IMG/VR virus record: IMGVR_UViG_3300010345_000156
Length of the DNA stretch: 54,247 bases
Reading direction: 5' to 3' (one strand)
Source of the DNA: an uncultured virus (IMG/VR IMGVR_UViG_3300010345_000156)
Lineage: Duplodnaviria; Heunggongvirae; Uroviricota; Caudoviricetes
Shown here: piece after piece, positions 8,233-46,170 of the stretch
How the letters are laid out: the number at the start of each line of letters is the position of its first letter
Numbering within the stretch: the stretch's first letter is position 1
Program-made: the position numbers and the translations under genes
Notes under the pieces: model-generated
What the model saw: the letters and a program-made list of their open reading frames with translations, nothing else
What the model was told of the DNA's origin: nothing
Databases searched by the model: none

Positions 8233-8763
8233 ATGGCTATTCCTAATATACAACATTCAGATAAACTATTAGTAACAATATCTAATATTCCCGGATATAT
8301 ACCTAAAACTGAAAATAAAGATAATATGGGACTTTATGATTTGTATATTAAGGAAGTCACATTTCCAGAACATAAAATAGATTTGATAGAGTCTCATAAT
8401 ATGGGGTTTCACATCAATCATCCTGGATCTAAAATAAATGATACTCTTGGAACTTTATCAATTACATTTAAACTTTCAGAAGGTATGAAAAATTGGTATT
8501 ATATTTATAGATGGATAAAGGGTTTAAGAGAAGGTGAAAATATAGATAATGAAAAGTTTTATAGATTGAATATAATAAAAGAAATTCGTTTAACATTTTT
8601 AGATAATGAAAAAAGACCTCAGTGGTATTATAAAATGATTAATTGTTTCATTACAAATTTAGGTGGATTGAGTTTTACGAATGGTCGAGACGAAGAGATG
8701 ACATTCACTATAGATGTTACATATGAAGATTTTGGAATTGAAGAAGGTGAATGTAATGATTGA
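8233..8763 (+). CDS. Tail tube terminator / sheath stabiliser (T4 gp3-like, tube fold)
   Basis: TLSITFKLSEGMKNWYYIYRWI...LTFLDNEK...NCFITNLGGLSF...FTIDVTY matches the gp3/gp19 pattern. Confidence 0.7.
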   Translation: MAIPNIQHSDKLLVTISNIPGYIPKTENKDNMGLYDLYIKEVTFPEHKIDLIESHNMGFHINHPGSKINDTLGTLSITFKLSEGMKNWYYIYRWIKGLREGENIDNEKFYRLNIIKEIRLTFLDNEKRPQWYYKMINCFITNLGGLSFTNGRDEEMTFTIDVTYEDFGIEEGECND

Positions 8764-9127
8764 AATTATACCAAAAGTTAATATAAACATAATTGAAGAA
8801 ACTTTGACAAGAATGGGAATTGTTGATAAGAAAAATAAAATCTTATACCCATCTTGTTTGTTGTTTAAAGATATAGATTCAAAATATTTTATTTGTCATT
8901 TTAAAGAAATGTTTCAAATAAGAAAAACTAAACCAAGTTTTGATAATATGTCTGAAGAAGATATTTTGAGAATGAATTCCGTTGCAGTATTATTAGAAGA
9001 ATGGGATATGTTAGATTTAATAGATTTTCCAGAAGAAGTTGATACTGTATATGTTTCTACAATTCCGTATAATGAAAAGTATAAATGGACGATTAAGCAA
9101 AAATTTAACATAAGGACATTAATATGA
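8756..9127 (+). CDS. regA: Translational repressor RegA
   Basis: MIEI...ETLTRMGI.DKKNKILYPSC...HFKEM...EEDILR.NSVA.LLEEW closely follows T4 RegA. Start moved to ATG 8756. Confidence 0.92.
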   Translation: MIEIIPKVNINIIEETLTRMGIVDKKNKILYPSCLLFKDIDSKYFICHFKEMFQIRKTKPSFDNMSEEDILRMNSVAVLLEEWDMLDLIDFPEEVDTVYVSTIPYNEKYKWTIKQKFNIRTLI

Positions 9128-15049: not shown

Positions 15050-16378
15050 TACAAATTATTATGATCCAGTTTTAAAGCATGATAAATAAGTATATGAGAA
15101 GTTATCGAATTGAAATTAAACCTAACAAAACGCAATTACAACTAATTAAACAGAGTTGTGATGTTGCTAGGTTTGCTTACAATTGGATGCTCGGAAAGAA
15201 AATAGCTGAAAGAGAGTCGTTAATATCTCTAGCTAAAATGTGGGACTTAGATAAAGTTCCTTCTATCCACGGCACATTTTTTGACTGGAACAAAGAATGG
15301 GCAAAATATAAAAAAGATAAAGATTGGATTACTTCGGTTTCTAAGTGTTGTGGTCAGATGGCTCTTAGAGACTTAGAAGTTTCTTTTAAAAGATTTTTCT
15401 CTAAAAAATCAAAATTCCCTAGATTTAAAAAGAAAGGTTCGAAAGATTCTTTTAAATTCGATGGTCAAGTTTTTATTGATTACAATACTATTCAAATTCC
15501 TGTCATTGGAAAAATCAAATTAAAAGAATGCGGATATGCTACTGATAAAAGACTAAGACTTTCTTCTGCTAGAATTTCTAGAGATGTGGATAGATGGTTC
15601 GTATCATTCTTTATCAAAGATAATCTTGTAATAAAAGACTTACCATCTATAAATGAAATTACGAAGAATGATATTATTGGTGTTGACTTAGGAATAAAAG
15701 AATTAGCTATTACGTCTGACGGAGAAACTTTTGAAAATCCAAAGGCTTATCAAAAGTACTTAAAGAGATTAAAACGTTATCAAAGAAGTGTATCAAGAAA
15801 ACAAAAAGGAAGTAACAATAGAAAGAAAGCAGTTTTAAAGCTTGGAAGATTGCACAGAAAGATTAAAAATGTGAGAAAAGATGCTATACATAAACTTACT
15901 ACATCAGTGGTGAAAACCAAACCAAAACTGATAGTGTTAGAAACATTAAAAACAAAGAATATGATCAAGAATCATAACTTAGCTGGAAGTATATCAGACG
16001 CTTCCTTTGGAGAAATTAGAAGTCAATTTGAATACAAATCTTTATGGAATGGTGTTCATTTAATTAAAGCTCCACAATTTTATGCTAGTTCAAAATTTTG
16101 TTCGTGTTGTGGTAAAAAGAATGAAAAATTGAAATTAAGTGATAGAGAATGGACTTGTCAGAATTGCAACACACATCATGATCGTGATGTGAATGCTGCT
16201 CAAAATTTGAAGTTCTTTGGTTTATGGATTTTAAATAAAAATACCGTGAGTTACACGGGAATTAACGCTAGTGGAGATGAAAGATTACAGTTCTTAACAG
16301 AACAGTGTTCGTCTATGAAGCTAGAATTTGAATCTAAGAAATAGTGTTCTACATAGTTTCAAAGATTTAAAGTAACGG
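15050..16378 (+). mobile_element. Non-autonomous tnpB-only element with an IS607-like right end
   Basis: Contains tnpB and ends ...AAAGTAACGG. It is flanked by the two ends of a DUF3140-like gene. The left boundary is approximate. Confidence 0.7.
15094..16344 (+). CDS. tnpB: RNA-guided nuclease TnpB
   Basis: N-terminal HTH (YRIEIKPN...ARFAYNW), RuvC D (GVDLG), E (VLETL) and D (DRDVNAA), and a C4 zinc finger. Start placed at the ATG after GATAAATA. Confidence 0.93.
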   Translation: MRSYRIEIKPNKTQLQLIKQSCDVARFAYNWMLGKKIAERESLISLAKMWDLDKVPSIHGTFFDWNKEWAKYKKDKDWITSVSKCCGQMALRDLEVSFKRFFSKKSKFPRFKKKGSKDSFKFDGQVFIDYNTIQIPVIGKIKLKECGYATDKRLRLSSARISRDVDRWFVSFFIKDNLVIKDLPSINEITKNDIIGVDLGIKELAITSDGETFENPKAYQKYLKRLKRYQRSVSRKQKGSNNRKKAVLKLGRLHRKIKNVRKDAIHKLTTSVVKTKPKLIVLETLKTKNMIKNHNLAGSISDASFGEIRSQFEYKSLWNGVHLIKAPQFYASSKFCSCCGKKNEKLKLSDREWTCQNCNTHHDRDVNAAQNLKFFGLWILNKNTVSYTGINASGDERLQFLTEQCSSMKLEFESKK

Positions 16379-19049: not shown

Positions 19050-20290
19050 CTGTATAACATCAACCTATTTTTGATTTGGTTGTAGACACTTCATAGCTTG
19101 TGCAAAGGTTTTCAACAAGACGCAAATCTAATTGAATTCCTTTGTCTGATTTTTGCTCCATGTCCGATAAAGATTGAATGTTCTCCAACCTATAGTAAGA
19201 TCTTAAACCCTCGTAGAGGATATTGATTGCAGCACTTAGATCTCTGTTGTGTAAGTGCCCACATTCACATTGCCATTCTCTATCACTCAGAGAAAGGTCT
19301 TCTTTGATAAGCCCACAGAATCTACACATTTTTGAGGAAGGAAAGAACCTATCAATTTTCTGTAAAGTCTTTCCACGATTCTTGCATTTGTATTCGAGGA
19401 AAGAAACTAATTGACTCCATCCAGCATCTGAAATAGACTTTGATAATTTCTTGTTCTTCAATAATCCAGAGACATTTAAATTTTCTATTGAAATGAAATC
19501 AAAGTCTTTAGTTAATTCATGAGAGATTAAATGATTATTATGTTTTCTTTGGTTAGCAATTTTCTCGTGAGTTCTAGCTAATTTAATTCTATTTTTAATA
19601 TATCTTTTAGAACCTTTTACTTTCCTAGAAAGATGCTTTTGTAATCTTTTTATTCTTCTTTGAGACTTTCTTAAATACTTTTTAGTTTCAAATTCTTTTC
19701 CATTTGAAGCAACTACTAAAGTCTTTAATCCTAAATCTATTCCAATAGCGTTATTTGTTTTCTCAAAAATTTCTTCTTCAGTAGAAAATATTATTGAAAC
19801 AAAATATTTTCCAGATTTTGATTTAGAAACTGTACATGAGTAATATTTAACATTTGTAGGAATAATTCTATCAATTCCAATCTTGACTAAACCGATTTTT
19901 TCCAACCAAATTTTATTTTCACGAATTTGATATTTTTTATTTGGTAATTGATAAGATAATTGTTCTTTTTTGAATTGAGGTCTACCAAGTTTCTTCTTTC
20001 TTTTCTTATTGAAGAATTGTTTTAGAGTGTCTTGAAAGTTTCTTTCCATTTGTTGTAAAGCACCCGCAGAAGAATTTTTAAGGAATTCGAACTCTTGCTT
20101 TAATAATGTTGCAGTCTTATAAATTAATTTTTCGCCTTTTTTGTATGAATTGAAGATTTCTACATTTTTATTCCAGATAAATTTAACTGAACGAAAAGTC
20201 TCTTCAATTTTAGTTGATTGTTCTTTCGTGGGGTAAATTCTAAATTTGTAAGAATTCATTATCTTCATATAATTATTTATGCAAGCCATC
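19050..20290 (-). mobile_element. tnpB-only insertion element; ends approximate
   Basis: Inverted relative to all neighbouring genes. The ends could not be resolved by eye. Confidence 0.6.
19060..20268 (-). CDS. tnpB: RNA-guided nuclease TnpB (stand-alone, IS200/IS605 family)
   Basis: YKFRIYPT HTH, GIDLGL, SIENL, FPSSKMC..CG...CECG..HNRD.SAA. No tnpA nearby. Start follows CATAAATA. Confidence 0.93.
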   Translation of the reverse strand: MKIMNSYKFRIYPTKEQSTKIEETFRSVKFIWNKNVEIFNSYKKGEKLIYKTATLLKQEFEFLKNSSAGALQQMERNFQDTLKQFFNKKRKKKLGRPQFKKEQLSYQLPNKKYQIRENKIWLEKIGLVKIGIDRIIPTNVKYYSCTVSKSKSGKYFVSIIFSTEEEIFEKTNNAIGIDLGLKTLVVASNGKEFETKKYLRKSQRRIKRLQKHLSRKVKGSKRYIKNRIKLARTHEKIANQRKHNNHLISHELTKDFDFISIENLNVSGLLKNKKLSKSISDAGWSQLVSFLEYKCKNRGKTLQKIDRFFPSSKMCRFCGLIKEDLSLSDREWQCECGHLHNRDLSAAINILYEGLRSYYRLENIQSLSDMEQKSDKGIQLDLRLVENLCTSYEVSTTKSKIG

Positions 20291-21986: not shown

Positions 21987-23318
21987 CTAAAATTTGAGTT
22001 GTAGAGTTGTGACACTCTTAGACATTTTTAAACGTCTTGGGCTAACTACGAAGCCCTTTATCAAGTCCTCATCTGACCAAAGGTCAAACGCATTCGAGAT
22101 TCCTTTTCTTAGAATATTTCCACCACCATTGATGTCAGCATTCATTTTATAACCTTTCTCTGTTACGAACAATCCTCTAGTCTGTCGGTTTCCAACATAG
22201 GACTCGTGGTTGCAAATCTCTTCTTTGTCTAGGAAAGAACATTTAGAAGTATAAGATTCTTCGGTTGTTTCAAAAGTTCTTCCAGTTTTCTCCCACTTAT
22301 ATTTTAATATTTCTATAAATTTTGCATGTGGAATATTGATAAAGTTTTGATTTGTTTTCTTTCCAAGGTTCACTTCTTGTTTCCAACCAATGTTCTTTCC
22401 CACTATCAAGTGAGTAACACCAGCGGAAACTAATTGATTAGCAACCTCTTTCGTAACAGTGTGTAATAAATTCTTCAATCTGAAGCTACGCTTCCTACAT
22501 AACTTCTTAATCAATCTCTTTATTCTCTTCTTTCCTCTCTTTGTATTGTTCAAATCTAATTCACTTCTCAACTTCGATAGTCTCTTATTAAATAAAGCAT
22601 TCATAGATAATAATGGACCGCCAGGAACTAACAACTGTGAAAATTCTTTATTGTTAGTAGCTATCGCAGCTAAATTCTTAACACCTAAATCTATTCCAGC
22701 AGCATAGCCTTTGTCTACTTGAACCTTTTGTTTAATATCCAAATACTTTGTCATAATCAAGTAACCATCATTAAAAGGCAAAACAGAAACGTCTCTTAAA
22801 TTTGGGTCACAATGATAAGTAACTACTCCATCAGAATCTACAGACTCAAACAATCTAAGTTTAATCAAGAAATCTAAAGAAGAAAGTTTTAAAATATTTT
22901 CTCTTAACCAAGGAATAGAAATTGTCTGAATGTTGAAACTTACACCTTGTCTTCCAATCAATTTATCTTTATATCTAGGTGGTTTAGGGACACCTAAAAA
23001 TTTCTTAGGATTTTTTCTATATTCTTTAATTGAGGCGAAGAAAGATTTCCAGTTTTGATCAAGTTCTCTAAGAACCGCTTGAGCAAGTTTTGCCGGTAAT
23101 TTAGAGTAACAATCTGGACGTTCTGTCTGCAATTTCTTCTGAATCGAAATGTAATTCAAATATTTTTTGTTTTTGAGAAATTCTTGTCTTATAATGTAGT
23201 TTGCATAGTTTCTTAAATTCTTTGCATTCCAACATAGAGTGTCACAACTTGACCAAGCTGAGTTATTAGAATCGATAAAGTAACTATCTACTCTATAAGA
23301 ATTTGTATTTTTCTTCAT
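21987..23318 (-). CDS. tnpB: TnpB with rearranged RuvC-II
   Basis: GIDLGV (RuvC-I). LIVGKN has G in place of the canonical E, and EESYTSK supplies an alternative E. NADING (RuvC-III). Confidence 0.9.
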   Translation of the reverse strand: MKKNTNSYRVDSYFIDSNNSAWSSCDTLCWNAKNLRNYANYIIRQEFLKNKKYLNYISIQKKLQTERPDCYSKLPAKLAQAVLRELDQNWKSFFASIKEYRKNPKKFLGVPKPPRYKDKLIGRQGVSFNIQTISIPWLRENILKLSSLDFLIKLRLFESVDSDGVVTYHCDPNLRDVSVLPFNDGYLIMTKYLDIKQKVQVDKGYAAGIDLGVKNLAAIATNNKEFSQLLVPGGPLLSMNALFNKRLSKLRSELDLNNTKRGKKRIKRLIKKLCRKRSFRLKNLLHTVTKEVANQLVSAGVTHLIVGKNIGWKQEVNLGKKTNQNFINIPHAKFIEILKYKWEKTGRTFETTEESYTSKCSFLDKEEICNHESYVGNRQTRGLFVTEKGYKMNADINGGGNILRKGISNAFDLWSDEDLIKGFVVSPRRLKMSKSVTTLQLKF

Positions 23319-23872
23319 TTTATATTCAACTCTTGAATCAACTTTTCGGTCATTCTCTTTGTTCTGCGTCTTCCATATAATCTAGCAGTAAATGATGTTA
23401 CTATAGACACAAAATCTTGCATCAAATCTTTCTCATCCTCAACAACCTTGTTGATAACAACCAATTCACCATCCCACAAAGATTCAATGTAATTGAATCC
23501 AAACCTAGTGAGACTGTCTTTATGTTCTACAACAATTTTTGAAACTTTTTTATTTTTCAACAAAGACAACAATTTCTTTCGTTCATCATTCAAACCACTA
23601 CCACACTCTTCAACAACAATATCAACAACCCAACCATTTACGATGCAAAAATCTTGAACTCTCTTAGATTGGGAGTGCAAATTTCCTTTATTCTCACTGG
23701 AGGAAACTCTAGCATATGTAGCAACAAGACCCTTCGGGTCTTTTGTTCCATCAGGAACAATTACAGTGCCCGTCTGAGTGCGATACGCACCGGGAATCAT
23801 TCCTGATTTGAAATAATTCCAAGCAGTCTTATAACAAACTCCCAATTCTTTTGCATATGTACTTAACTTCAT
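23315..23872 (-). CDS. tnpA: IS607 transposase (HTH + serine recombinase)
   Basis: MKLSTYAKELGV.Y.TAW HTH, YARVSS catalytic Ser, GSGLN, EHKD-LTRFG, DFVSIVTSF.ARLYG.R. Confidence 0.93.
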   Translation of the reverse strand: MKLSTYAKELGVCYKTAWNYFKSGMIPGAYRTQTGTVIVPDGTKDPKGLVATYARVSSSENKGNLHSQSKRVQDFCIVNGWVVDIVVEECGSGLNDERKKLLSLLKNKKVSKIVVEHKDSLTRFGFNYIESLWDGELVVINKVVEDEKDLMQDFVSIVTSFTARLYGRRRTKRMTEKLIQELNIK

Positions 23873-37415: not shown

Positions 37416-38156
37416 ATGAAACTATATAAATTTAGAAACATCAATTCGGAAAAAGATTATAAAAGAGTTTTAGAATATATTGAAGAAAAATTTCTACACG
37501 CAGCAAAAATCGCAAATTTCCCAGATACATTTGAATTAGATATATGCAAAATTGAAATCAAGTATGATGAAAATGATATTGATAATTTAATGAAATATAA
37601 TTTGAAACAATTAAATAAACCAATACCAGATAAAAAGACTTTAGCACAAATTTTAACAGACAATCCAAGTAGCGAGTATTACAGATTTGAATTAACAAAT
37701 TTAATAAATGAATTAAAAGAAATTGTTAATATATGCTCACTTTCAAAATCTTATAATGATTCTAAAATGTGGGAAGATTATTCTAAAGGTATTTGTATAG
37801 AAGTTGAAGTAATGAAACATAAAAATATAAAAGAACGTCATGTAAAATATACAAACGAAAAACCAATTATAAAATTACCTAAAGATATATTCAATACAGA
37901 ATTACTTAAAGAAAAACTATTACAATATAAATCTGAATCATATAAGTTTGAAAATGAAGTAAGATTCGTAAGTGATAAACAAAATAAATTACCATTAGAA
38001 AATATATCAAAAATTTATGTAGGATATAATGTAAGTAAATGGGATAAAGACAAACTAGTGAAAAATGTCCATAATATAGATCCTAATATTAAAATTTATG
38101 AGATTATCAAAGATAAAGAATATTATAAATTTATAGAAGGTGATGAACTTATATAA
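37416..38156 (+). CDS. DUF2971-like protein
   Basis: LYKFR...CSLS......MW.DY..GICIE...VKY...K...YKFENEVR...I..IYVG. Start moved to MKLYKFR. Confidence 0.7.
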   Translation: MKLYKFRNINSEKDYKRVLEYIEEKFLHAAKIANFPDTFELDICKIEIKYDENDIDNLMKYNLKQLNKPIPDKKTLAQILTDNPSSEYYRFELTNLINELKEIVNICSLSKSYNDSKMWEDYSKGICIEVEVMKHKNIKERHVKYTNEKPIIKLPKDIFNTELLKEKLLQYKSESYKFENEVRFVSDKQNKLPLENISKIYVGYNVSKWDKDKLVKNVHNIDPNIKIYEIIKDKEYYKFIEGDELI

Positions 38157-39341
38157 TGCGTCAAATAGTTTACTAATTAAGTATCCTTTAGGAAATATCT
38201 ATAGTAAACACTGAGACAAAATTAAAATAAACCGATAAAAAACTATTGGAGAAAATTGATGAAATATATCTGGAAAGCATAACAAATAATTTATATTAAA
38301 ACTTTCTCGAAACAATTGCAGAAAATAATTTATGAAATTTCTTTATACCAAATATTTGAATGTCTCCATAATGTAGAATGCTAAAAATAGTCAAAAATGG
38401 AGCTTTTTGCCGAAACCCTTATGTCAAGTGATTTTTCAAAATAATTTCCTATACACTCTCCACCACTTTCCCTTATGTACTATTCTGAAACATATCCTAA
38501 ATCCACTTTCAAGTTATGACAAACCACTTCGGCAAAAAGCCTAATCAATTTCTTTCAATACCATTTCTCAATACCATTTCCTAAAACAATCAATTCCCAA
38601 TACCACTTTGCCCAAATAAGCCCTATAATTGCCTATATACTGCCCAAAATAGCCTAAATGATATACCCAGTAACTTATAAACAATCTTTCCACATAATGT
38701 TAATAGATTGAATAATATCAAATACAATTTCCTAAAATCTATTCCAAAATAAATGAATCAAATTTCATCCCATATATTCAACCAAATTCAATTCAATATA
38801 ATTCTTTCAATGGTTTTCAATTTCATTCAATTTGATTTTCATTCAATGTTATCCTAAATCATTCCCTATCTAAATTGCCTGAAATAGCCTTAAAACGGTC
38901 TAGGATACGGTATGGGGGTAAATGTATAAACGTTGTCTGGAAAGGATTTTAGGCATATCTAATCAAGAAATTCGACAAAGTTTTTAGGATAGTCTTTCAG
39001 GAAAAATTGAAGAAATGAAAGTGGTATAAGGTGGTTAAAGGAATTTGAAAAAGAATGACGGGGCTTTATAGCAAGATTTTGGATAGATCTTTCTTAAAAA
39101 GTGGTCTAAGAAATTTGTAAATAGACTCTTTTAAACCCTTGACAAATTGGAGAAAGTTTACTAGGCAAATTTTATTGGCTTTCTCAAATATTTTCCCCAT
39201 AGTATTTCTTCAGTATTTTGTCAACAACTATTTCAGAAATTCTCAAATATTTTTCCTATAGTATTTTCCTAAATTTTTGTCAAGGGTCTAAAAGAGAAAA
39301 TATGCAAAAAATTTCTAAAACTCTTTTGACTAAATACATAT

Positions 39342-39614
39342 ATGATAGAGATTAGCAAAGATTTTCAAATAGATTTTTCCTATAGTAATTCCAATAAGTT
39401 CTTTACGAAGACCGCGAAACACCTACGGGATCTGTTAGCTGAGGGAAGAAATGCGGGAAATTTAATCGAAAGTTTTAATCTAGATCATTTTAGAAAGAGT
39501 GTTTTAAGTATTCCTAAAAGAGTTTCTACAAAGTTCAAGAGCTTTTTGCTGAAATGTTCCCTATATGGATTGTTCATTTTGCCAACTTATGTAAAGACTT
39601 CAGGAAAGAATTAA
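39342..39614 (+). CDS. Possible late ORF (or non-coding transcript)
   Basis: ACTAAATA lies 5 nt before the ATG; the codon pattern is atypical. Confidence 0.3.
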   Translation: MIEISKDFQIDFSYSNSNKFFTKTAKHLRDLLAEGRNAGNLIESFNLDHFRKSVLSIPKRVSTKFKSFLLKCSLYGLFILPTYVKTSGKN

Positions 39615-39786
39615 AGCAAAATTTTCTAAAACATTGCTGGAAAAATTGAAACGAAATTTTATGATATTTTTCGTGTATTTTTGTTTTAACTATTTTAGGA
39701 ATTGATTTAGAAATTTAATTTGAGAAAATGATTGACAATACAGATTAAAGATTGTAAGATAGTAAATGACAGAGGAGTGAATAAAA

Positions 39787-40209
39787 ATGAAGATAATAAA
39801 TGACCATGAATATGAAGCGATATTAGAAAAGATTAAATATGATATTAATACTATTGGAATAACCGCGCATATAATAGATCCTGTAAAATATGATTACGAT
39901 ATTAAACGAAATTCTTTAATAGATCCTTCAAATGATATGTATAAGTTAATTTCAAATGGTGCCTTAATATCTGCTCCTGGATTTCCTTATAGATATATTA
40001 TATTTACGCCAGAAGAAATGAAAACTATTTTTGATATAATTTCTAATAAAACTAGCAATATCAAAAAGGAATTTACATATGAAGAACTAAGCCTAGAAAC
40101 AAATTTTAATTTCTTTATTTCAGATATTAATTCTAAGATTGTTTTCAATAAAGAAAATGTTTCAAAAGTTCCAGATAGTATTTCAAGTTATGCTGATATG
40201 ATTATTTGA
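39787..40209 (+). CDS. Hypothetical protein; paralogue of 11772..12134
   Basis: Promoter at 39732, GAGGAG RBS, shared motifs. Confidence 0.7.
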   Translation: MKIINDHEYEAILEKIKYDINTIGITAHIIDPVKYDYDIKRNSLIDPSNDMYKLISNGALISAPGFPYRYIIFTPEEMKTIFDIISNKTSNIKKEFTYEELSLETNFNFFISDINSKIVFNKENVSKVPDSISSYADMII

Positions 40210-40358
40210 TACCTTTTCCTATATTCTTTCCTAAAAAGTTTCCTAAAATCTATTCTGGAAAAGATATGCGGCCTTTATAGACAACTTTTTAGGATACTGC
40301 TCAAGAAATTGGATCTAGGAATTTTGAAAAAGAATCGAAATTAAATTTACAAAGACCC

Positions 40359-40387
40359 TTGACAAATCAAATTAAAGATGGTATCAT
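40359..40387 (+). promoter_or_regulatory. Promoter for structured RNA copy 1 and the polymerase gene
   Basis: TTGACA-aatcaaattaaagatgg-TATCAT. Confidence 0.7.
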
Positions 40388-40434
40388 ATAATTAATGAAG
40401 AGATTTAGAAATCTGGAAAAATATTTTTGAGCGA

Positions 40435-40582
40435 GTTTGATAAATAATTGTATATGGAAGTAATCTTAATCACTGGAAAGATTTTGATTGCTAGGAGCCT
40501 AAAAACTCTGTCCAGTGATAGCAATTAGAATCTAACCAAATGAGATTAAAGATGAAACCAGAAAATGAGAAAAGTATCAAAC
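40435..40582 (+). ncRNA. Unassigned pseudoknotted structured RNA, copy 1
   Basis: Helices 40435-42/40575-82, 40470-77/40511-18, 40479-93/40519-33 and 40494-97/40506-09; all covary with copy 2. Confidence 0.8.
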
Positions 40583-40588
40583 AACCGG

Positions 40589-40620
40589 AAAGCCTTAGAG
40601 AGAAATCTTTAGGGCTTTTT
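40589..40620 (+). terminator. Intrinsic terminator between RNA copy 1 and the polymerase gene
   Basis: AAAGCCTTAGAGA-GAAA-TCTTTAGGGCTTT followed by TT. Confidence 0.8.
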
Positions 40621-40643
40621 CTATTAACTATTTTGGAGAAAGG

Positions 40644-41996
40644 ATGTTTAAATTAAGAATATCAAAAGATGTTGTAGAAGCTATTAGGATAAATTTTTCT
40701 AATATTAAGGATAGAAGTTTTGCAATAGGAATTTGTCATAATATTGTTAAAAATAAAGATGGAAAAATTGTTCATGAAAATAATGAAGGCATTTTAACAA
40801 GATTGACAAAAACTGTTTCAAGCAATAGAGATAAGATTTTAGAAATATTACAAAAATTAAAATCTGTTGGAATCATTTGTTTACATCATGATAAGAAAGA
40901 TCCTCAGTTTAATACATTCATTTGGGAAGCACAGTTAGAACAAAATTTCCATAATGAAGATTGGTATGATTTAACTGAAGATATGCCAGAATATAATCAT
41001 TACAAAAAATTGATGGAAAGAGTTATTAACAGAAAGAAATTAAAAGATTCTAATATAAGATTGGATGAAAAGTTAATAGATAAGATTCAATCAAATGAAG
41101 CAAAAGAAATTCTAAAGAAAAGAAATAATGGAGAGTTTGTAGAATCACTTTTCAAAAATTCTAAATCTGGAAGAATGTTTAATATCTATTCCAATATGTC
41201 TAAAGATATAAGACATCAAATGAAAGATCTAAATGGACGAAAACTTTGTGAAATTGATTTCAAATCTTGTCAAATAGCTATCCTCGGGAAATTGATTTTT
41301 GAAAACTCTTTGAAAACAGCTTCACAAAAAATGCAGGAAGAATTAAAACATTTCCAAGATCTTGCCTATAATGGTTTCTATGAATATTTCTCAGATGCGT
41401 TAAACATTCCTAAAAACCTATTAAAGAAATTATCTCTAAAATTCTTCCTAGATAAATCTAATCAAAGAAATGAATTAAACTTTTCAAATGATCTAATAGC
41501 AAAATTCTATAATTCAAATTTAGACATCAAAAATTCCTACATTTCTTTTATCAATCTATTCCAAACAACTTTTCCGGAAATTTCAAAATACATTTCAGGC
41601 ATTATCAAAAACCTAGAACATGATGGAAAAACTCTAGCATCTTTATTACAATACCAAGAATCTAAAGTTTTGAAATCCCTTCTAGCAAAAATCAAAACAA
41701 TCAAAGATCCTGAATTTAATTTCTTTTCAATTCATGATTCAATCATCTTTACTGAAAATCATTCTAAAGATGTGAAGAAAATTGTATATGAATTCATCAA
41801 AGATCTTAAATCAAAAAATTTATTCATAAAATCAAAATATTCAAATCTAAATCAAAATACCAACAAAGAATATGATGAATTCCATTATGTCGCTAAAACT
41901 GATCCGAATGAATTTTTGCTAGGAATCTCCGCTCTCGAATCTTTCTTTACATGTTTTGAAGTAAATTTAGATCAATCCTTTCCCATAATCTCCTAA
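40644..41996 (+). CDS. Stand-alone divergent family-A nucleic-acid polymerase (PolA / T7-RNAP-like palm), with no exonuclease domains
   Basis: Motifs in the expected order: SGRMF...KDIR, LCEIDFKSCQ (motif A), KNLLKKLSLKFF (motif B-like), LQYQES, SIHDSII (motif C). GAGAAAGG RBS. Confidence 0.65.
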   Translation: MFKLRISKDVVEAIRINFSNIKDRSFAIGICHNIVKNKDGKIVHENNEGILTRLTKTVSSNRDKILEILQKLKSVGIICLHHDKKDPQFNTFIWEAQLEQNFHNEDWYDLTEDMPEYNHYKKLMERVINRKKLKDSNIRLDEKLIDKIQSNEAKEILKKRNNGEFVESLFKNSKSGRMFNIYSNMSKDIRHQMKDLNGRKLCEIDFKSCQIAILGKLIFENSLKTASQKMQEELKHFQDLAYNGFYEYFSDALNIPKNLLKKLSLKFFLDKSNQRNELNFSNDLIAKFYNSNLDIKNSYISFINLFQTTFPEISKYISGIIKNLEHDGKTLASLLQYQESKVLKSLLAKIKTIKDPEFNFFSIHDSIIFTENHSKDVKKIVYEFIKDLKSKNLFIKSKYSNLNQNTNKEYDEFHYVAKTDPNEFLLGISALESFFTCFEVNLDQSFPIIS

Positions 41997-42209
41997 ATTC
42001 TTTCTACTATAACCATTTCCAAATCAGATTTCATTCATTCTGGTTTTTGATCATTTCTAGGAAATCCTAATTCAATTTCCCGCATAGACCTATCTAAAAT
42101 CCTTTCAAAACAATTCCCTATACTATTTCCTATATCCTTCCCTAAACCCTCCCTAAACTGTTCCTAAACACTTCCTGAAAAAAAATTACAAATAGACTCT
42201 TCTAAACCC

Positions 42210-42504
42210 TTGACAAATTTCAAAAAAGTTACTAAGAAATTTCTCCAAAAAGATTTCCTAAAAATATGTTGACAATTCTTTGAAATATTTCTAGCACGGT
42301 TTCGGAAAAAATTCTAAAACCTCTCTTCTAAACCCTTGACATTTTTGAAAGAATTTACTAGGAAAATTTTTAGGAAATCTTTTTAGAAATTCTTTGAAAT
42401 AGTTGTTGACAAATTCGGAATATTTTTCTAGGCATTGTTTTTGAAATGATTTCCGAAAATAATTTAAGAAAAGACTTGACGTTTTTTGGAAATTTTACTA
42501 GGGA
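42210..42504 (+). repeat. Tandem array of five TTGAC-N17-CTA(G/A) promoter-like sites
   Basis: Starts at 42210, 42269, 42336, 42406 and 42476. Confidence 0.75.
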
Positions 42505-42757
42505 ATTATTTGGGAAATTATTTGATATTATTTTGGGCTTTTTGAAATAGTATCTTGAAATTTTTCGGAAATAGTATTAGGAAAAATATAGGGGGCCTTT
42601 ATATAGGGAGAATTTAATTTTGCATTTAGTTTCCGGATCTACAGTTTCGGAATTTTTTGCAATATTTACTTTTAGACACTTGACGGAAACTTAAATTTGT
42701 ACTAGTTGCCGAAAGTGTTGTCTGAATTTGGTATTGGAATTTAATCTCGAAAAATGC

Positions 42758-42786
42758 TTGACTATTGAAATTAAATGTGGTATAAT
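42758..42786 (+). promoter_or_regulatory. Promoter for structured RNA copy 2
   Basis: TTGACT-17-TATAAT with an extended TG. Confidence 0.75.
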
Positions 42787-42817
42787 GAATAATGAATTGA
42801 TGAAAAGAATTTATGAA

Positions 42818-42970
42818 CATTTGATAAATAATTATATAATGGAAGTAATCTTAATCAGTGGAAAGATTTCGATTGCTAGGAATGTAAAAAGTTCCATCCA
42901 CTGATAGCAATTGATATCTAACCAAATAAGAGAATTAAGATGAACCCAGAAAATGAGATATTATCAAATG
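42818..42970 (+). ncRNA. Unassigned pseudoknotted structured RNA, copy 2
   Basis: Helices 42818-27/42961-70, 42855-62/42897-904, 42864-78/42905-19 and 42879-83/42891-95. Confidence 0.8.
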
Positions 42971-43003
42971 AGAGCACTATGGATTTATTCTTAGTGCTTT
43001 TTT
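42971..43003 (+). terminator. Intrinsic terminator after RNA copy 2
   Basis: AGAGCACTA...TAGTGCTTT followed by TTT. Confidence 0.8.
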
Positions 43004-43022
43004 GCATTTTTGGAGAAAGGTT

Positions 43023-43173
43023 ATGTATGAATTAAATAATAAGAATTCATACATGGATAAAGTCTGGAAAAGAATATTGGAGAATTCGTTCTAAAAAAGG
43101 AAATAAAACTGCATTGAAATCAAAAGTTTCATATGAAGAGTTTTTAGAAATTGCTAGAGAGTGGTTAAAGTAA
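43023..43173 (+). pseudogene. Small ORF with an apparent +1 frameshift
   Basis: After the GAGAAAGG RBS, MYEL stops after 23 codons, but removing one A gives MYELIIRIHTWIKSGKEYWRIR...EIAREWLK*. Confidence 0.4.
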
Positions 43174-43201
43174 ATATATCATAGAACAAAGGCGAAACAA
43201 A

Positions 43202-43633
43202 ATGCGTAAAAAAGTTGTATCATATATCAATTCAGATAGAAAATATAGAAAAGCAAAATCTCCAAAAAACTTAAAATGCCTAGATCAATTCTCTCTAAAA
43301 GAATTCCTGGAATTAGATTTAGAACAATTGAAATCAGAAATTGAATTTGATCGAGACAATTATTACATTTCATTCAGACTCACAATATTAAACGAAAATT
43401 ATTATTCACTTGATCGAATTCATTTCATAGAATTACTGCAAAAATTGAAAACACTTCTTTTGAAAATTGTTGATAATACTACAATGCAACTAATTCTTAT
43501 CAATCAAAATTCAAACAACACTGAAACAAAATTTATGAATGAAATATTAAAAGCAATGATAAAAGAAATTGAATTTGAAATTAATATTGAAATTTTTGCT
43601 AAGTATCATGGATGGAAAAATTTACAACAGTGA
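43202..43633 (+). CDS. Hypothetical protein
   Basis: 143-aa ORF with an AAAGG RBS. Confidence 0.6.
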   Translation: MRKKVVSYINSDRKYRKAKSPKNLKCLDQFSLKEFLELDLEQLKSEIEFDRDNYYISFRLTILNENYYSLDRIHFIELLQKLKTLLLKIVDNTTMQLILINQNSNNTETKFMNEILKAMIKEIEFEINIEIFAKYHGWKNLQQ

Positions 43634-44174
43634 TACCAATTTTTTGCAATTTCTACTTTTAGACACTTGACAAAATTCAATTCCTAGACTAGCTCCCTAA
43701 ATTGAATTCCCTATATGAATATCCTGAATTAATTTGTGGAAAGAATGTAGAAATTGAATTGTCGAAATGATTGTAGGAATGAATTGTAGGAATAGTGTCG
43801 AATTAATTTAGGGAATAGATTTGTTGGGAATTGATTTAGGAAAAATTTTAGGAAATGATTGTGGAAATTAAATTGAGGGCGCCTTTATAGGAAGAATTTT
43901 AGGAAATGATTGTGGAAATTGCTCTACGTTTCAATTTCAAAATTTCAATTAATATTCTCATTTTTAATCAAATTTATTTCCAGAATCATTTATCAATTTA
44001 TTTTCACATTTCATTCCTACATTTATTCTCTACACTCTATTCCTACAATTAAATTCCTACACTCTATTCCTACAATTCAATTCCTAAATCATTTTCATTC
44101 AATTTTTCGTGCTGATTTTCTACACTCTGTTTCTGAATCATTTTCTATATAGGTGAATGTGTAGAGAGTGGGAT

Positions 44175-44847
44175 AGAAAATTTTTTGTAGAAACTCCCTT
44201 GCCAAACTAGAAGTGCTGCACTATCTTTGTATGTATGGAAGTGAACGAATGATCTTCCGGAAACAAAGTCTAGAAAGGAATTTGAAAATGTTTGTGATTT
44301 TGTTGAAAGAAATTGGGAACATTCATTGTTACTTTCGTGAATCAATCAATGGTTCGGAATTTGATGCTATTCGGAATTTTAAGGATCGTTCTGGATTTTC
44401 AGCATTCATTTTTTATTCTGAAGATGAAGCGAAAGAGAGATTGAATAAAATCAAAATTCAATTTAATATTTGTTCTAGAATGGAATTTGAAATTGTTCCA
44501 TTGAATGAATTGCAACAAAAGATTAGGAACATTTTTCTTAATTGAAAGGAAACATGAATCACACATTTTTGAACAGATTGCATTTCTTTTGTATTGCTTT
44601 TTTGATTCCTTATATTGTTGCATTTTTGTTTTTAATGTCAATGTCGAATGAATTTGTGACAATGAAGCATTTTTATTTCATTTTGATTTTGGGAATTGTT
44701 GTTGCTGGAATTTCTACAGTCTCACAGATTCTTAAGAAAATTTTTTGTAGAAACTCCCTTGCCAAACTAGAAGTGCTGCACTATCTTTGTATGTATGGAA
44801 GTGAACGAATGATCTTCCGGAAACAAAGTCTAGAAAGGAATTTGAAA
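44175..44847 (+). repeat. 113-bp identical direct repeats (44175-44287, 44735-44847), each carrying a promoter, leader and RBS
   Basis: Base-by-base identity, including TTGCCA-17-TATCTT and GAAAGG. Confidence 0.92.
44288..44545 (+). CDS. Hypothetical early protein
   Basis: Start MFVILL follows the cassette RBS. Confidence 0.6.
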   Translation: MFVILLKEIGNIHCYFRESINGSEFDAIRNFKDRSGFSAFIFYSEDEAKERLNKIKIQFNICSRMEFEIVPLNELQQKIRNIFLN

Positions 44848-44850
44848 TGA
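44554..44850 (+). CDS. Small membrane protein reading into the duplicated promoter cassette
   Basis: Two hydrophobic helices; no stop codon before the repeat. Confidence 0.5.
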   Translation: MNHTFLNRLHFFCIAFLIPYIVAFLFLMSMSNEFVTMKHFYFILILGIVVAGISTVSQILKKIFCRNSLAKLEVLHYLCMYGSERMIFRKQSLERNLK

Positions 44851-44993
44851 AGTATGCTTTGGTTTTTGTTGTCGGAATTTTGATCGGACATTTCGGACCT
44901 GTTTTTTCGGCAAAGTGGACTGCACATAAGGCAAGCCAGGGAATGCATCTTGTCGGAAAGGGCTTGGACACTGTTGGCAATTTGATGCGATGA
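44847..44993 (+). CDS. 48-aa membrane-associated peptide (not in the ORF track)
   Basis: MKYALVFVVGILIGHFG...; resembles 51770..51919. Confidence 0.6.
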   Translation: MKYALVFVVGILIGHFGPVFSAKWTAHKASQGMHLVGKGLDTVGNLMR

Positions 44994-45014
44994 GTTTTTG
45001 AAAAATTTGTTTCG

Positions 45015-45051
45015 GAAGAGAGTGTAGGAAATGGTTTCTGCACTCTCTTTT
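45015..45051 (+). terminator. Intrinsic terminator (near-copy at 46025-46060)
   Basis: GAAGAGAGTGTAGGA...TTCTGCACTCTCTTTT. Confidence 0.8.
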
Positions 45052-45162
45052 CATTTTGTGAATTTTTTTGAAGAAACTCCCTTGCCAAACTAGAAGTCAT
45101 GCACTATATTTTGTTCTGTAAGGTTGAGAGGTCAGTTTTCACAATCATCGAAAGGTAGAACA

Positions 45163-45996
45163 ATGAGAATCGAAATTAAGCATAAGACAACGAATGAAAT
45201 TTTGGTTATTGGTGAAGGTGATACTGAATCAGAAGCAATTCTTAATGCGATTAAGAATTCTTTCAAACCAGACGAAAATTTTGCGAATCTGGAAAGTGCG
45301 AATCTGGAAAGTGCGAATCTGTATCGTGCGAATCTGGAAAGTGCGAATCTGTATCGTGCGAATCTGGAAAGTGCGAATCTGTATCGTGCGAATCTGGAAA
45401 GTGCGAATCTGTATCGTGCGAATCTGGAAAGTGCGAGTCTGAATTTTGCGAATCTGTATCGTGCGAATCTGGAAAGTGCGAATCTGGAAAGTGCGAATCT
45501 GTATCGTGCGAATCTGAATTTTGCGAATCTGTATCGTGCGAATCTGGAAAGTGCGAATCTGGAAAGTGCGAATCTGGAAAGTGCGAATCTGGAAAGTGCG
45601 AATCTGGAAAGTGCGAATCTGGAAAGTGCGAATCTGAATTTTGCGAATCTGGAAAGTGCGAATCTGGAAAGTGCGAATCTGGAAAGTGCGAATCTGAATT
45701 TTGCGAATCTGTATCGTGCGAATCTGGAAAGTGCGAATCTGGTTCATGTAGATTCTCGAAACATTCGATTGGATGAGGATAAGGAAATTCTCTTCCGGAT
45801 GGATTGTTGTGTTTGGCCTATTACGATTTGGCACAATAAGGTTCACATTGGTTGTAAGGAATTTGAATTTTCGGAAATTTTGGAAATGACAGAAGAGAAA
45901 GCGGAATCTATCTACGAAGGTGCAGGAAAAAGGTGGAAGCGTTTTGGAAATACGTTGAAGACTGCGATTCTTGACATTCAGAATTCCGGAATTTAA
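45163..45996 (+). CDS. Pentapeptide-repeat protein
   Basis: About 30 ANL(ES/YR/NF) units and a C-terminal IGC-containing domain. Start follows GAAAGG. Confidence 0.92.
   Translation: MRIEIKHKTTNEILVIGEGDTESEAILNAIKNSFKPDENFANLESANLESANLYRANLESANLYRANLESANLYRANLESANLYRANLESASLNFANLYRANLESANLESANLYRANLNFANLYRANLESANLESANLESANLESANLESANLESANLNFANLESANLESANLESANLNFANLYRANLESANLVHVDSRNIRLDEDKEILFRMDCCVWPITIWHNKVHIGCKEFEFSEILEMTEEKAESIYEGAGKRWKRFGNTLKTAILDIQNSGI
45283..45741 (+). repeat. 15-bp coding tandem repeat
   Basis: GCGAATCTG + GAAAGT/TATCGT/AATTTT. Confidence 0.95.
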
Positions 45997-46170
45997 TTTC
46001 CACAACGATTTCAAACAAATTTCCGGAAGAGAGTGTAGGAAAGATTCTGCACTCTCTTTTNNNNNNNNNNNNTTTTTTGAAGAAACTCCCTTGCCAAACT
46101 GGAATTTTTGCATATATTTTGTTCATAGAGTTGAGAGATAGAGTTCACCACACTAAAAAGGAGAAAGAAA

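Follow-up and report, generated by a model that had tools for sequence, protein, structure and literature searches.

To our knowledge, T4-like phages have early regions noted for ORFan proteins and for simple cassettes of promoter and terminator, and elaborate RNAs have not been known from them. PeSL cassettes, in the parts of PMC2839356 and PMC4122927 that deal with them, are repeated intergenic units of an ORFan-rich T4-like region, each with a strong sigma70-like promoter, a stem-loop terminator and a Shine-Dalgarno sequence; they mediate shuffling, with genes gained or lost at cassette borders. In the account given by that portion of PMC2839356 they measure about 100 base pairs (bp) and have one stem-loop and no 150-nucleotide (nt) multi-helix RNA. 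Here, we describe an RNA element that is carried twice by a comparable cassette in a stretch of 54,247 nt from an uncultured virus (IMG/VR record IMGVR_UViG_3300010345_000156, Caudoviricetes; the whole stretch is called the window), which is a fragment of a distant T4-like myovirus from wastewater. The two modules share with PeSLs the features listed above, including the change of gene content at their borders. Unlike in PeSLs, the promoter is separated from the gene by the terminator and by an inserted RNA of 150 nt, which is conserved and has several covarying helices, each module coming to about 290 bp from the promoter on with this RNA included. A multi-helix RNA that is conserved and made from one of the region's strongest predicted promoters can therefore be part of a cassette in a T4-like early region.

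The put RNA of phage HK022 makes RNA polymerase resistant to terminators in cis and, in the part of PMC9378689 that covers it, occurs as two similar copies per genome (putL and putR), located past early promoters and ahead of terminators with which it does not need to base pair, all of which resembles the arrangement found here. Unlike our element, put is about 70 nt long with two stem-loops and belongs to a lambdoid Escherichia coli phage, and the two show no similarity in sequence or structure. The pRNA of phi29 oligomerises by complementary loop-loop pairing between molecules, as set out in part of PMC2241910, and for ROOL and GOLLD the covarying "tertiary" pairs proved to be intermolecular by cryo-electron microscopy, according to the section of PMC12286853 on these RNAs. 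Our element resembles all three in being a phage-borne structured RNA with complementary covarying segments, which by analogy might pair in trans, and resembles pRNA in having its ends closed by a basal helix. It differs in that pRNA serves the packaging motor of phi29-like podoviruses and pairs via at most 4 nt, whereas the window has a gp19-like tail tube and RegA, and in that ROOL and GOLLD are 500-800 nt long; Rfam 15 gave no pRNA, ROOL or GOLLD match in the window. A T4-type genome also encodes two small stable RNAs of unassigned function, rnaC and rnaD (species 1 and 2; 139 and 119 nt), which are unrelated to the element (at most 7.2 bits with its covariance model, E value 0.9) and, unlike it, lie within a tRNA cluster, rnaC having a tRNA-like arm. 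Finally, the CI RNA of P4 and the c4 immunity RNAs of P1 and P7 combine a small RNA with complementary segments on the same transcript, and compensatory changes set their specificity between relatives. They are RNAs of about 70-80 nt that are processed from longer transcripts of temperate elements, whereas the phage studied here looks lytic and T4-like, and the element has no such match in Rfam.

The element is a real, structured, non-coding RNA on the + strand, and it is a new RNA family with three known variants: copies A and B, two homologous blocks with an RNA of about 150 nt each in the window, and variant C from another metagenomic contig. A first-pass annotation of the window, made from its letters and a list of open reading frames (ORFs), had described A and B as homologous non-coding blocks, and every feature that it named is present in the sequence where it was placed. 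The cores of A and B are 90-91% identical in the alignment, and the MAFFT alignment, taken from the -35 box as far as the opening codons of the downstream frame, has a mean column identity of 84%. When the two copies were turned into a covariance model, it recovered only A and B from the whole window (166 and 178 bits); the best further match, antisense self-matches aside, reached 19 bits, and the reverse strand of the two copies scored just 28 and 14 bits. Both leaders were more stable than 200 out of 200 dinucleotide shuffles (z scores of -4.17 for A and -4.41 for B). When the entire window was searched with Rfam 15 at gathering thresholds, no match was found, and with E values up to 10 the region 40000-43400 gave three chance matches only (SNORD42, U7 and MIR8001), all outside the element. 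This agrees with the first-pass annotation, which did not recognise the RNA as a named family. The parts of the two copies are the following:

40435..40582, + strand: RNA core of copy A (40433-40584), 166 bits
42818..42970, + strand: RNA core of copy B (42817-42971), 178 bits
40435-40442/40575-40582, + strand: basal helix P1 of copy A, GTTTGATA/TATCAAAC
42818-42827/42961-42970, + strand: basal helix P1 of copy B, CATTTGATAA/TTATCAAATG
40455-40457/40558-40560, + strand: UGG/CCA helix of copy A
40463-40470/40545-40553, + strand: helix P2 of copy A
42848-42855/42934-42941, + strand: helix P2 of copy B
40470-40477, + strand: X of copy A, TCACTGGA
40511-40518, + strand: X' of copy A, TCCAGTGA
42855-42862, + strand: X of copy B, TCAGTGGA
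42897-42904, + strand: X' of copy B, TCCACTGA
40479-40493 (Y) and 40519-40533 (Y'), + strand: 15-bp helix of copy A
42864-42878 (Y) and 42905-42919 (Y'), + strand: the same helix in copy B, with one U-U mismatch
40494-40509, + strand: inner hairpin H of copy A
42879-42895, + strand: inner hairpin H of copy B

The four helices originally proposed to pair in both copies despite their sequence differences are P1, X/X', Y and H, and we confirmed them all, Y of copy B with the mismatch listed. The additional helix that had been suggested as possible is present too (ATCTTAAT/ATTAAGAT, perfect in copy B and with one bulged A in copy A), and the three blocks proposed as invariant, GGAAGTAATCTTAAT, AACCAAAT and CCAGAAAATGAGA, are indeed so. 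X/X' pairs as CACUGG/CCAGUG in A, CAGUGG/CCACUG in B and CAUGUGG/CCACAUG in C, the stems of H are three unrelated sequences in which pairing is maintained, and P1 and Y show one double change apiece. Considering A, B and C together, 91% of 145 pair cells hold standard pairs, versus 28-43% in a control in which the partners were slid by 1-3 columns. Six pairs are altered on both sides, a count that understates X/X' because MAFFT misplaces the indel of variant C. G-U pairs are found at four pair columns, where the opposite strand would have A-C mismatches; these pairs and the low reverse-strand scores identify the + strand as the RNA strand and point to RNA rather than DNA symmetry. Judged from the compared sequences, the predicted fold is well supported by compensatory change. 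The RNA would fold as an irregular rod composed of P1, the 3-bp UGG/CCA helix, P2, the 15-bp Y and H, with conserved A-rich internal loops.

Variant C was obtained from one metagenome scan, and it contributes further compensatory changes. The scan gave six loci, four of them identical to the window copies (on two contigs), one being variant C (locus L013; 138.9 bits) and one a chance match in coding DNA (L012). Variant C equals A in P1, the 5' strand of P2, Y, the unpaired A-rich segments and the entire terminator. Its X is TCATGTGG instead of TCACTGGA and its X' CCACATGA instead of TCCAGTGA, with one base inserted in each strand and 8 bp retained, and its inner hairpin reads GAAAC-CTTCAAAAA-GTTTC where A has GGAG-CCTAAAAA-CTCT; two more small changes lie near P2 and the UGG/CCA helix. 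Since the spacers diverge between the window and L013, the invariance of the remaining RNA reflects constraint. The RNA of L013 is separated from the homologous promoter by two ORFs, at a distance of about 600 nt, and together with its terminator it closes this two-ORF unit with no gene behind it: the ATG reads ATA, and the gene for a 450-residue protein that follows copy A is absent. Because gene content changes at the module borders, the RNA and its terminator behave as a separate unit. In L013 (- strand), a (GGTCAW)n tandem repeat occupies 1390-1535; it can be read as a 49-codon Ser/Trp/Gly-repeat frame and stops 22 nt short of variant C.

Other searches did not add members. DNA-pattern scans of IMG/VR returned 4, 4, 3 and 0 loci, all 11 of them chance matches (none above 14.5 bits by covariance model), and IMG/VR protein queries with the 450-residue protein, its 270-residue neighbour and the homologue P0007 found no relatives. 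The four loci retrieved from 185,579 species genomes were all chance matches (12.5-18.5 bits). Among GenBank phages, blastn gave only a 47-nt chance match in four Streptococcus prophage records, megablast of 24 kb of the window against phages gave no match, and no match to the element was found in the plasmids searched. With a family of only three variants, its function has to be inferred.

In its predicted form, the module is a self-contained unit of early transcription and comprises a very strong sigma70-type promoter, a 5' stretch of 25-40 nt, the RNA of about 150 nt, an intrinsic terminator and a ribosome-binding site:

40359..40387, + strand: promoter A, TTGACA, 17-nt spacer and TG-extended TATCAT; predicted start at about 40394
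42758..42786, + strand: promoter B, TTGACT, 17-nt spacer and TG-extended TATAAT; predicted start at about 42793
40588..40621, + strand: terminator A, a 14-bp hairpin with a GAAA-type loop and a U run (predicted fold)
42972..43004, + strand: terminator B, an intrinsic hairpin and U tract (predicted fold)
40631..40646, + strand: TTTTGGAGAAAGG ribosome-binding block and ATG of copy A, conserved in the alignment
43008..43094, + strand: TTTTGGAGAAAGG block of copy B, whose ATG at 43023 opens a 23-codon frame only
40644..41996, + strand: gene for the 450-residue protein behind copy A, reachable from promoter A only via terminator read-through

Promoters A and B align with each other, match 11 of 12 consensus positions plus the TG extension, and share the top rank among 43 promoter-like sites in 38000-46000. 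As 43 sites is also the shuffled expectation, only the rank and position of these two count, and in both respects they bear out the sigma70 promoter that had been placed ahead of each copy. Likewise, differing terminators followed by TTTTGGAGAAAGG and an ATG were found as described for both copies, this 13-mer occurring in the window only at 40631 and 43008. Terminator A was overlooked by a simple terminator scan and was recognised from its fold. In A, B and C the terminator starts 1-5 nt past P1 and has a strong hairpin and a U run.

Folding of each transcript as far as the loop of the terminator revealed no antiterminator, since neither the best fold nor the centroid pairs the terminator's 5' arm. 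A and B have terminators of unrelated sequence despite cores that are about 90% identical, and those of A and C are identical while X and H differ. The unrelated terminators of A and B, the shared one of A and C and the free 5' arm together argue that there is no base-pair competition between core and terminator. This removes the usual platform for a riboswitch or an attenuator and leaves as possibilities a small RNA in its own right, an RNA that modifies polymerase or a mechanism that depends on a factor. Thus, of the two functions offered by the first-pass annotation, the riboswitch- or attenuator-like leader lacks its key part, with a free terminator 5' arm and a terminator that does not co-vary with the core, and the small RNA released by the terminator fits better, as a candidate only. 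An attenuator of the zipper type, as outlined in part of PMC13401043, was discarded since the 5' stretch shows no complementarity to the terminator. Separately, a frame of 24-26 codons starting with MEVILI (40448-40528; in B, part of 42728-42904) was rejected as a gene, as it shifts frame between A and B and has lost its ATG in C.

We tentatively favour a reading in which the module makes a discrete small RNA early on, its 3' end set by its own terminator, and in which that terminator would also gate read-through into the downstream ORFan. Most transcripts would stop at the terminator, in which case the main product would be a discrete small RNA of about 190-225 nt; only read-through transcripts would reach the ORFan gene, and in this way the module would also act as a passive gate. 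The anatomy of the module, the rank of its promoters, the terminators right after P1, the missing antiterminator and the retention of the RNA without a gene in L013 all count for this reading. As a small RNA, the product would be a candidate for an early effector directed at the host or at competing phages.

A separate question is how X/X' relates to Y. The first-pass annotation had drawn the order a-b-hairpin-a'-b' as a pseudoknot. This strand order is present in A, B and C (X, 1 nt, Y, H, 1-2 nt, X', 0 nt, Y'), but a static pseudoknot containing both helices does not fit the linkers of 1 and 0 nt or the folding energies. Going from 5' to 3', X finishes and Y starts at one point, and X' finishes and Y' starts at a second. 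As these two points would need to be both 8 bp and 15 bp apart, the 8-bp X/X' and the complete 15-bp Y cannot coexist within one molecule. The nested fold with Y beats folds forced to hold X/X' by 5.2, 8.7 and 10.0 kcal/mol. For a transcript ending at X', X/X' is the best fold, in copy A even with Y' complete. Cognate X/X' duplexes reach -10.7 to -11.5 kcal/mol, and the six non-cognate combinations -2.7 to -7.9 kcal/mol. For any covarying "pseudoknot", we suggest checking the linker lengths before drawing it within one molecule.

Three readings of X/X' remain: a folding switch, a strained partial pseudoknot or intermolecular pairing. As a folding switch, X/X' would form first during transcription and Y would then displace it. 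Alternatively, X/X' would pair between molecules, either by self-association or by a released RNA acting on nascent leaders, and the differences among A, B and C would then make every X/X' pair self-specific. Spelled out, this would mean that X/X' builds homo-dimers or rings, or that the released small RNA sets polymerase passage on its own nascent leader, with the central X/X' bases as an address preventing cross-talk of A, B and rival strains such as C; we regard this scheme as rather unlikely. If true, a lytic T4-like phage would contain in its early region a specificity code made of RNA alone, and pairing in trans would make the element a small and tractable addition to the few natural RNAs that recognise copies of themselves.

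Several points weigh against the favoured reading and against pairing in trans. We infer pairing in trans solely from the geometry, and X/X' together with the inner 8 bp of Y may instead form the strained partial pseudoknot. Extra TCACTGGA sites in the window number three, approximately the chance expectation, and no target for a trans-acting RNA was found there; a search for base-paired targets via X-like sites was rejected because their frequency is at chance level. The covariation comes from three variants, too few for a statistical test. The deletion in L013 may be recent, in which case the RNA being kept without a gene says little. In addition, one metatranscriptome has contigs over the RNA, the gene and the spacers (2.8 kb) whose depth is similar throughout, with DNA carry-over possible, and such an even depth demonstrates neither transcription nor the ends, strand or level of the RNA. 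This metatranscriptome was found in public sequencing runs, where the stretch appeared in 24 rows, four of them with at least half of its words, all from activated-sludge or wastewater samples and two of them marked as possible sources of this DNA; the four runs compared with the stretch consist of contigs. One 155-nt contig corresponds to 40431-40584, and its ends may be breaks of the assembly graph. Run X6 has a diverged DNA contig with 13 other letters and 9 gaps over 40441-40694, whose sequence could not be read out.

Of the alternatives to a small RNA, put-like antitermination in cis survives best, as a doubtful but serious possibility: the nascent RNA would bind the host RNA polymerase and render it resistant to this and later terminators, turning on the downstream early ORFans. 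The placement of two homologous copies, each past an early promoter and immediately before a terminator and genes, recalls putL and putR, and since such antitermination needs no base pairing with the terminator, it accommodates both the lack of an antiterminator and the fact that terminators A and B are unrelated. The RNA of L013 is about 600 nt from its promoter, and putR is likewise about 270 nt from its start site in the part of PMC9378689 describing it. On the other hand, the element is twice the size of put and has five or six helices instead of two stem-loops, there is no sequence or Rfam similarity, and a terminator 1-5 nt past P1 leaves little time for folding and loading. Moreover, L013 has nothing that needs antitermination for about 700 nt downstream. 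If the RNA does load onto RNA polymerase, it bears on how T4-like delayed-early genes pass terminators.

We consider it unlikely that the element is a riboswitch-like or factor-dependent leader, in which a ligand or protein would pick the X/X' or the Y fold and so control terminator action or start use. The layout would suit it (promoter, a conserved core closed by P1, terminator, Shine-Dalgarno sequence and ATG), as would the conserved unpaired bases, the covarying helices and two mutually exclusive helices with a compensatory change in each. However, the folds reveal no competition between terminator and antiterminator, the terminator sequence is independent of variation in the core, the downstream genes are unrelated ORFans and not a metabolic regulon, and Rfam has no match. 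A version involving translation can be imagined from a short frame (M-K/N-P-E-N-E) at 40540-40656, 42940-43035 and 1096-1246 of L013 (- strand), which runs from the 3' strand of P2 through the terminator and about 10 nt into the downstream ORF and is open in A, B and C, since a ribosome on this frame could block the hairpin. Yet its Shine-Dalgarno sequence is a weak GAGA, there is no conservation at the protein level, and by our estimate its openness in A and B is not beyond chance.

It is improbable that the module is just a long PeSL-type cassette, conserved mainly for the promoter, the ribosome-binding site and the terminator on it and for its use as a recombination patch in the shuffling of ORFans, with an incidental fold. 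The T4-like phage, a region rich in repeated promoter cassettes, the known role of PeSLs in shuffling and the fact that gene content differs between the window and L013 exactly at the module borders are in line with this view. But recombination homology leaves unexplained the double changes in four helices, the G-U pairs and the fully conserved A-rich unpaired segments in the face of diverging spacers, and the size and simplicity of PeSLs also argue against it. Least probable is a self-cleaving ribozyme, or a template or primer RNA for the polymerase-like gene directly downstream of copy A, for which that position and a strand order resembling the double pseudoknot of hepatitis delta virus-like ribozymes can be cited, but which has against it the lack of any Rfam ribozyme family even at E values up to 10, the lack of a linker or P4 between a' and b', the absence of a polymerase gene behind copy B and variant C, and a homologue of that gene in LR745206.1 preceded by a small ORF and no model match. 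Two further ideas, a CsrA-type GGA-motif sponge and a ToxI-like antitoxin mimic, were set aside, with no match to either in the Rfam search.

Regarding the phage itself, its best affiliation marker is a RegA-type translational repressor domain (window 8714-9127; E value 2.6e-19); the RegA-like protein matched 2288 phage records in tblastn at about 40% identity, the matches listed being T4-type phages. The gp19-like tail tube scored 28.0 bits, slightly under the Pfam cut-off of 28.2, and PhoH, an NAD-dependent ligase and a thioredoxin are also encoded. The module sits in a run of small ORFans with repeated promoter cassettes.

The 450-residue protein behind copy A has no Pfam or PHROG family and has 13 relatives with 23-37% identity. 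Its AlphaFold model, based on 61 sequences, has a mean predicted local distance difference test score of 90.5, and ranks 1-50 of a Foldseek search with this model were all family-A DNA polymerases (E values of 2e-6 to 7e-5; template modelling scores of 0.25-0.41 by query length), with which the structure rows of the Atlas agree. D205 and K261 are invariant, D365 is nearly so, and an IHDS motif is present. On the strength of the model, the protein looks like a compact family-A polymerase-like protein. Behind copy B there are instead the 23-codon frame, a start-less 45-codon frame in another phase and a 143-residue ORFan at 43202. The first two of these succeed one another at 43023-43173 (...GKEYWRIRSKKGNK...) and may be a broken or frameshifted small gene. 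The 634-kb phage LR745206.1 encodes a weak relative of the 450-residue protein, with a small ORF upstream of it and no match to the RNA model. As no polymerase gene follows B or C and no RNA precedes this relative, the RNA is not tied to the polymerase-like gene.

The interval of about 750 nt that separates copy B from the polymerase-like gene (42000-42757) contains no convincing ORF. Three repeats of approximately 54 nt with CCCTTGACA are found there at 42204, 42330 and 42470, and TTTCCTAWA/TAGGAAA motifs cluster in the same interval and again at 40209-40247 and 43837-43920. Elsewhere in the window, three ORFs resemble transposases of the IS200/IS605 type (15079-16344, 19060-20289 on the - strand and 21987-23872 on the - strand; phrog_506, E values down to 1e-111), one of which adjoins an ORF with a serine-resolvase domain.

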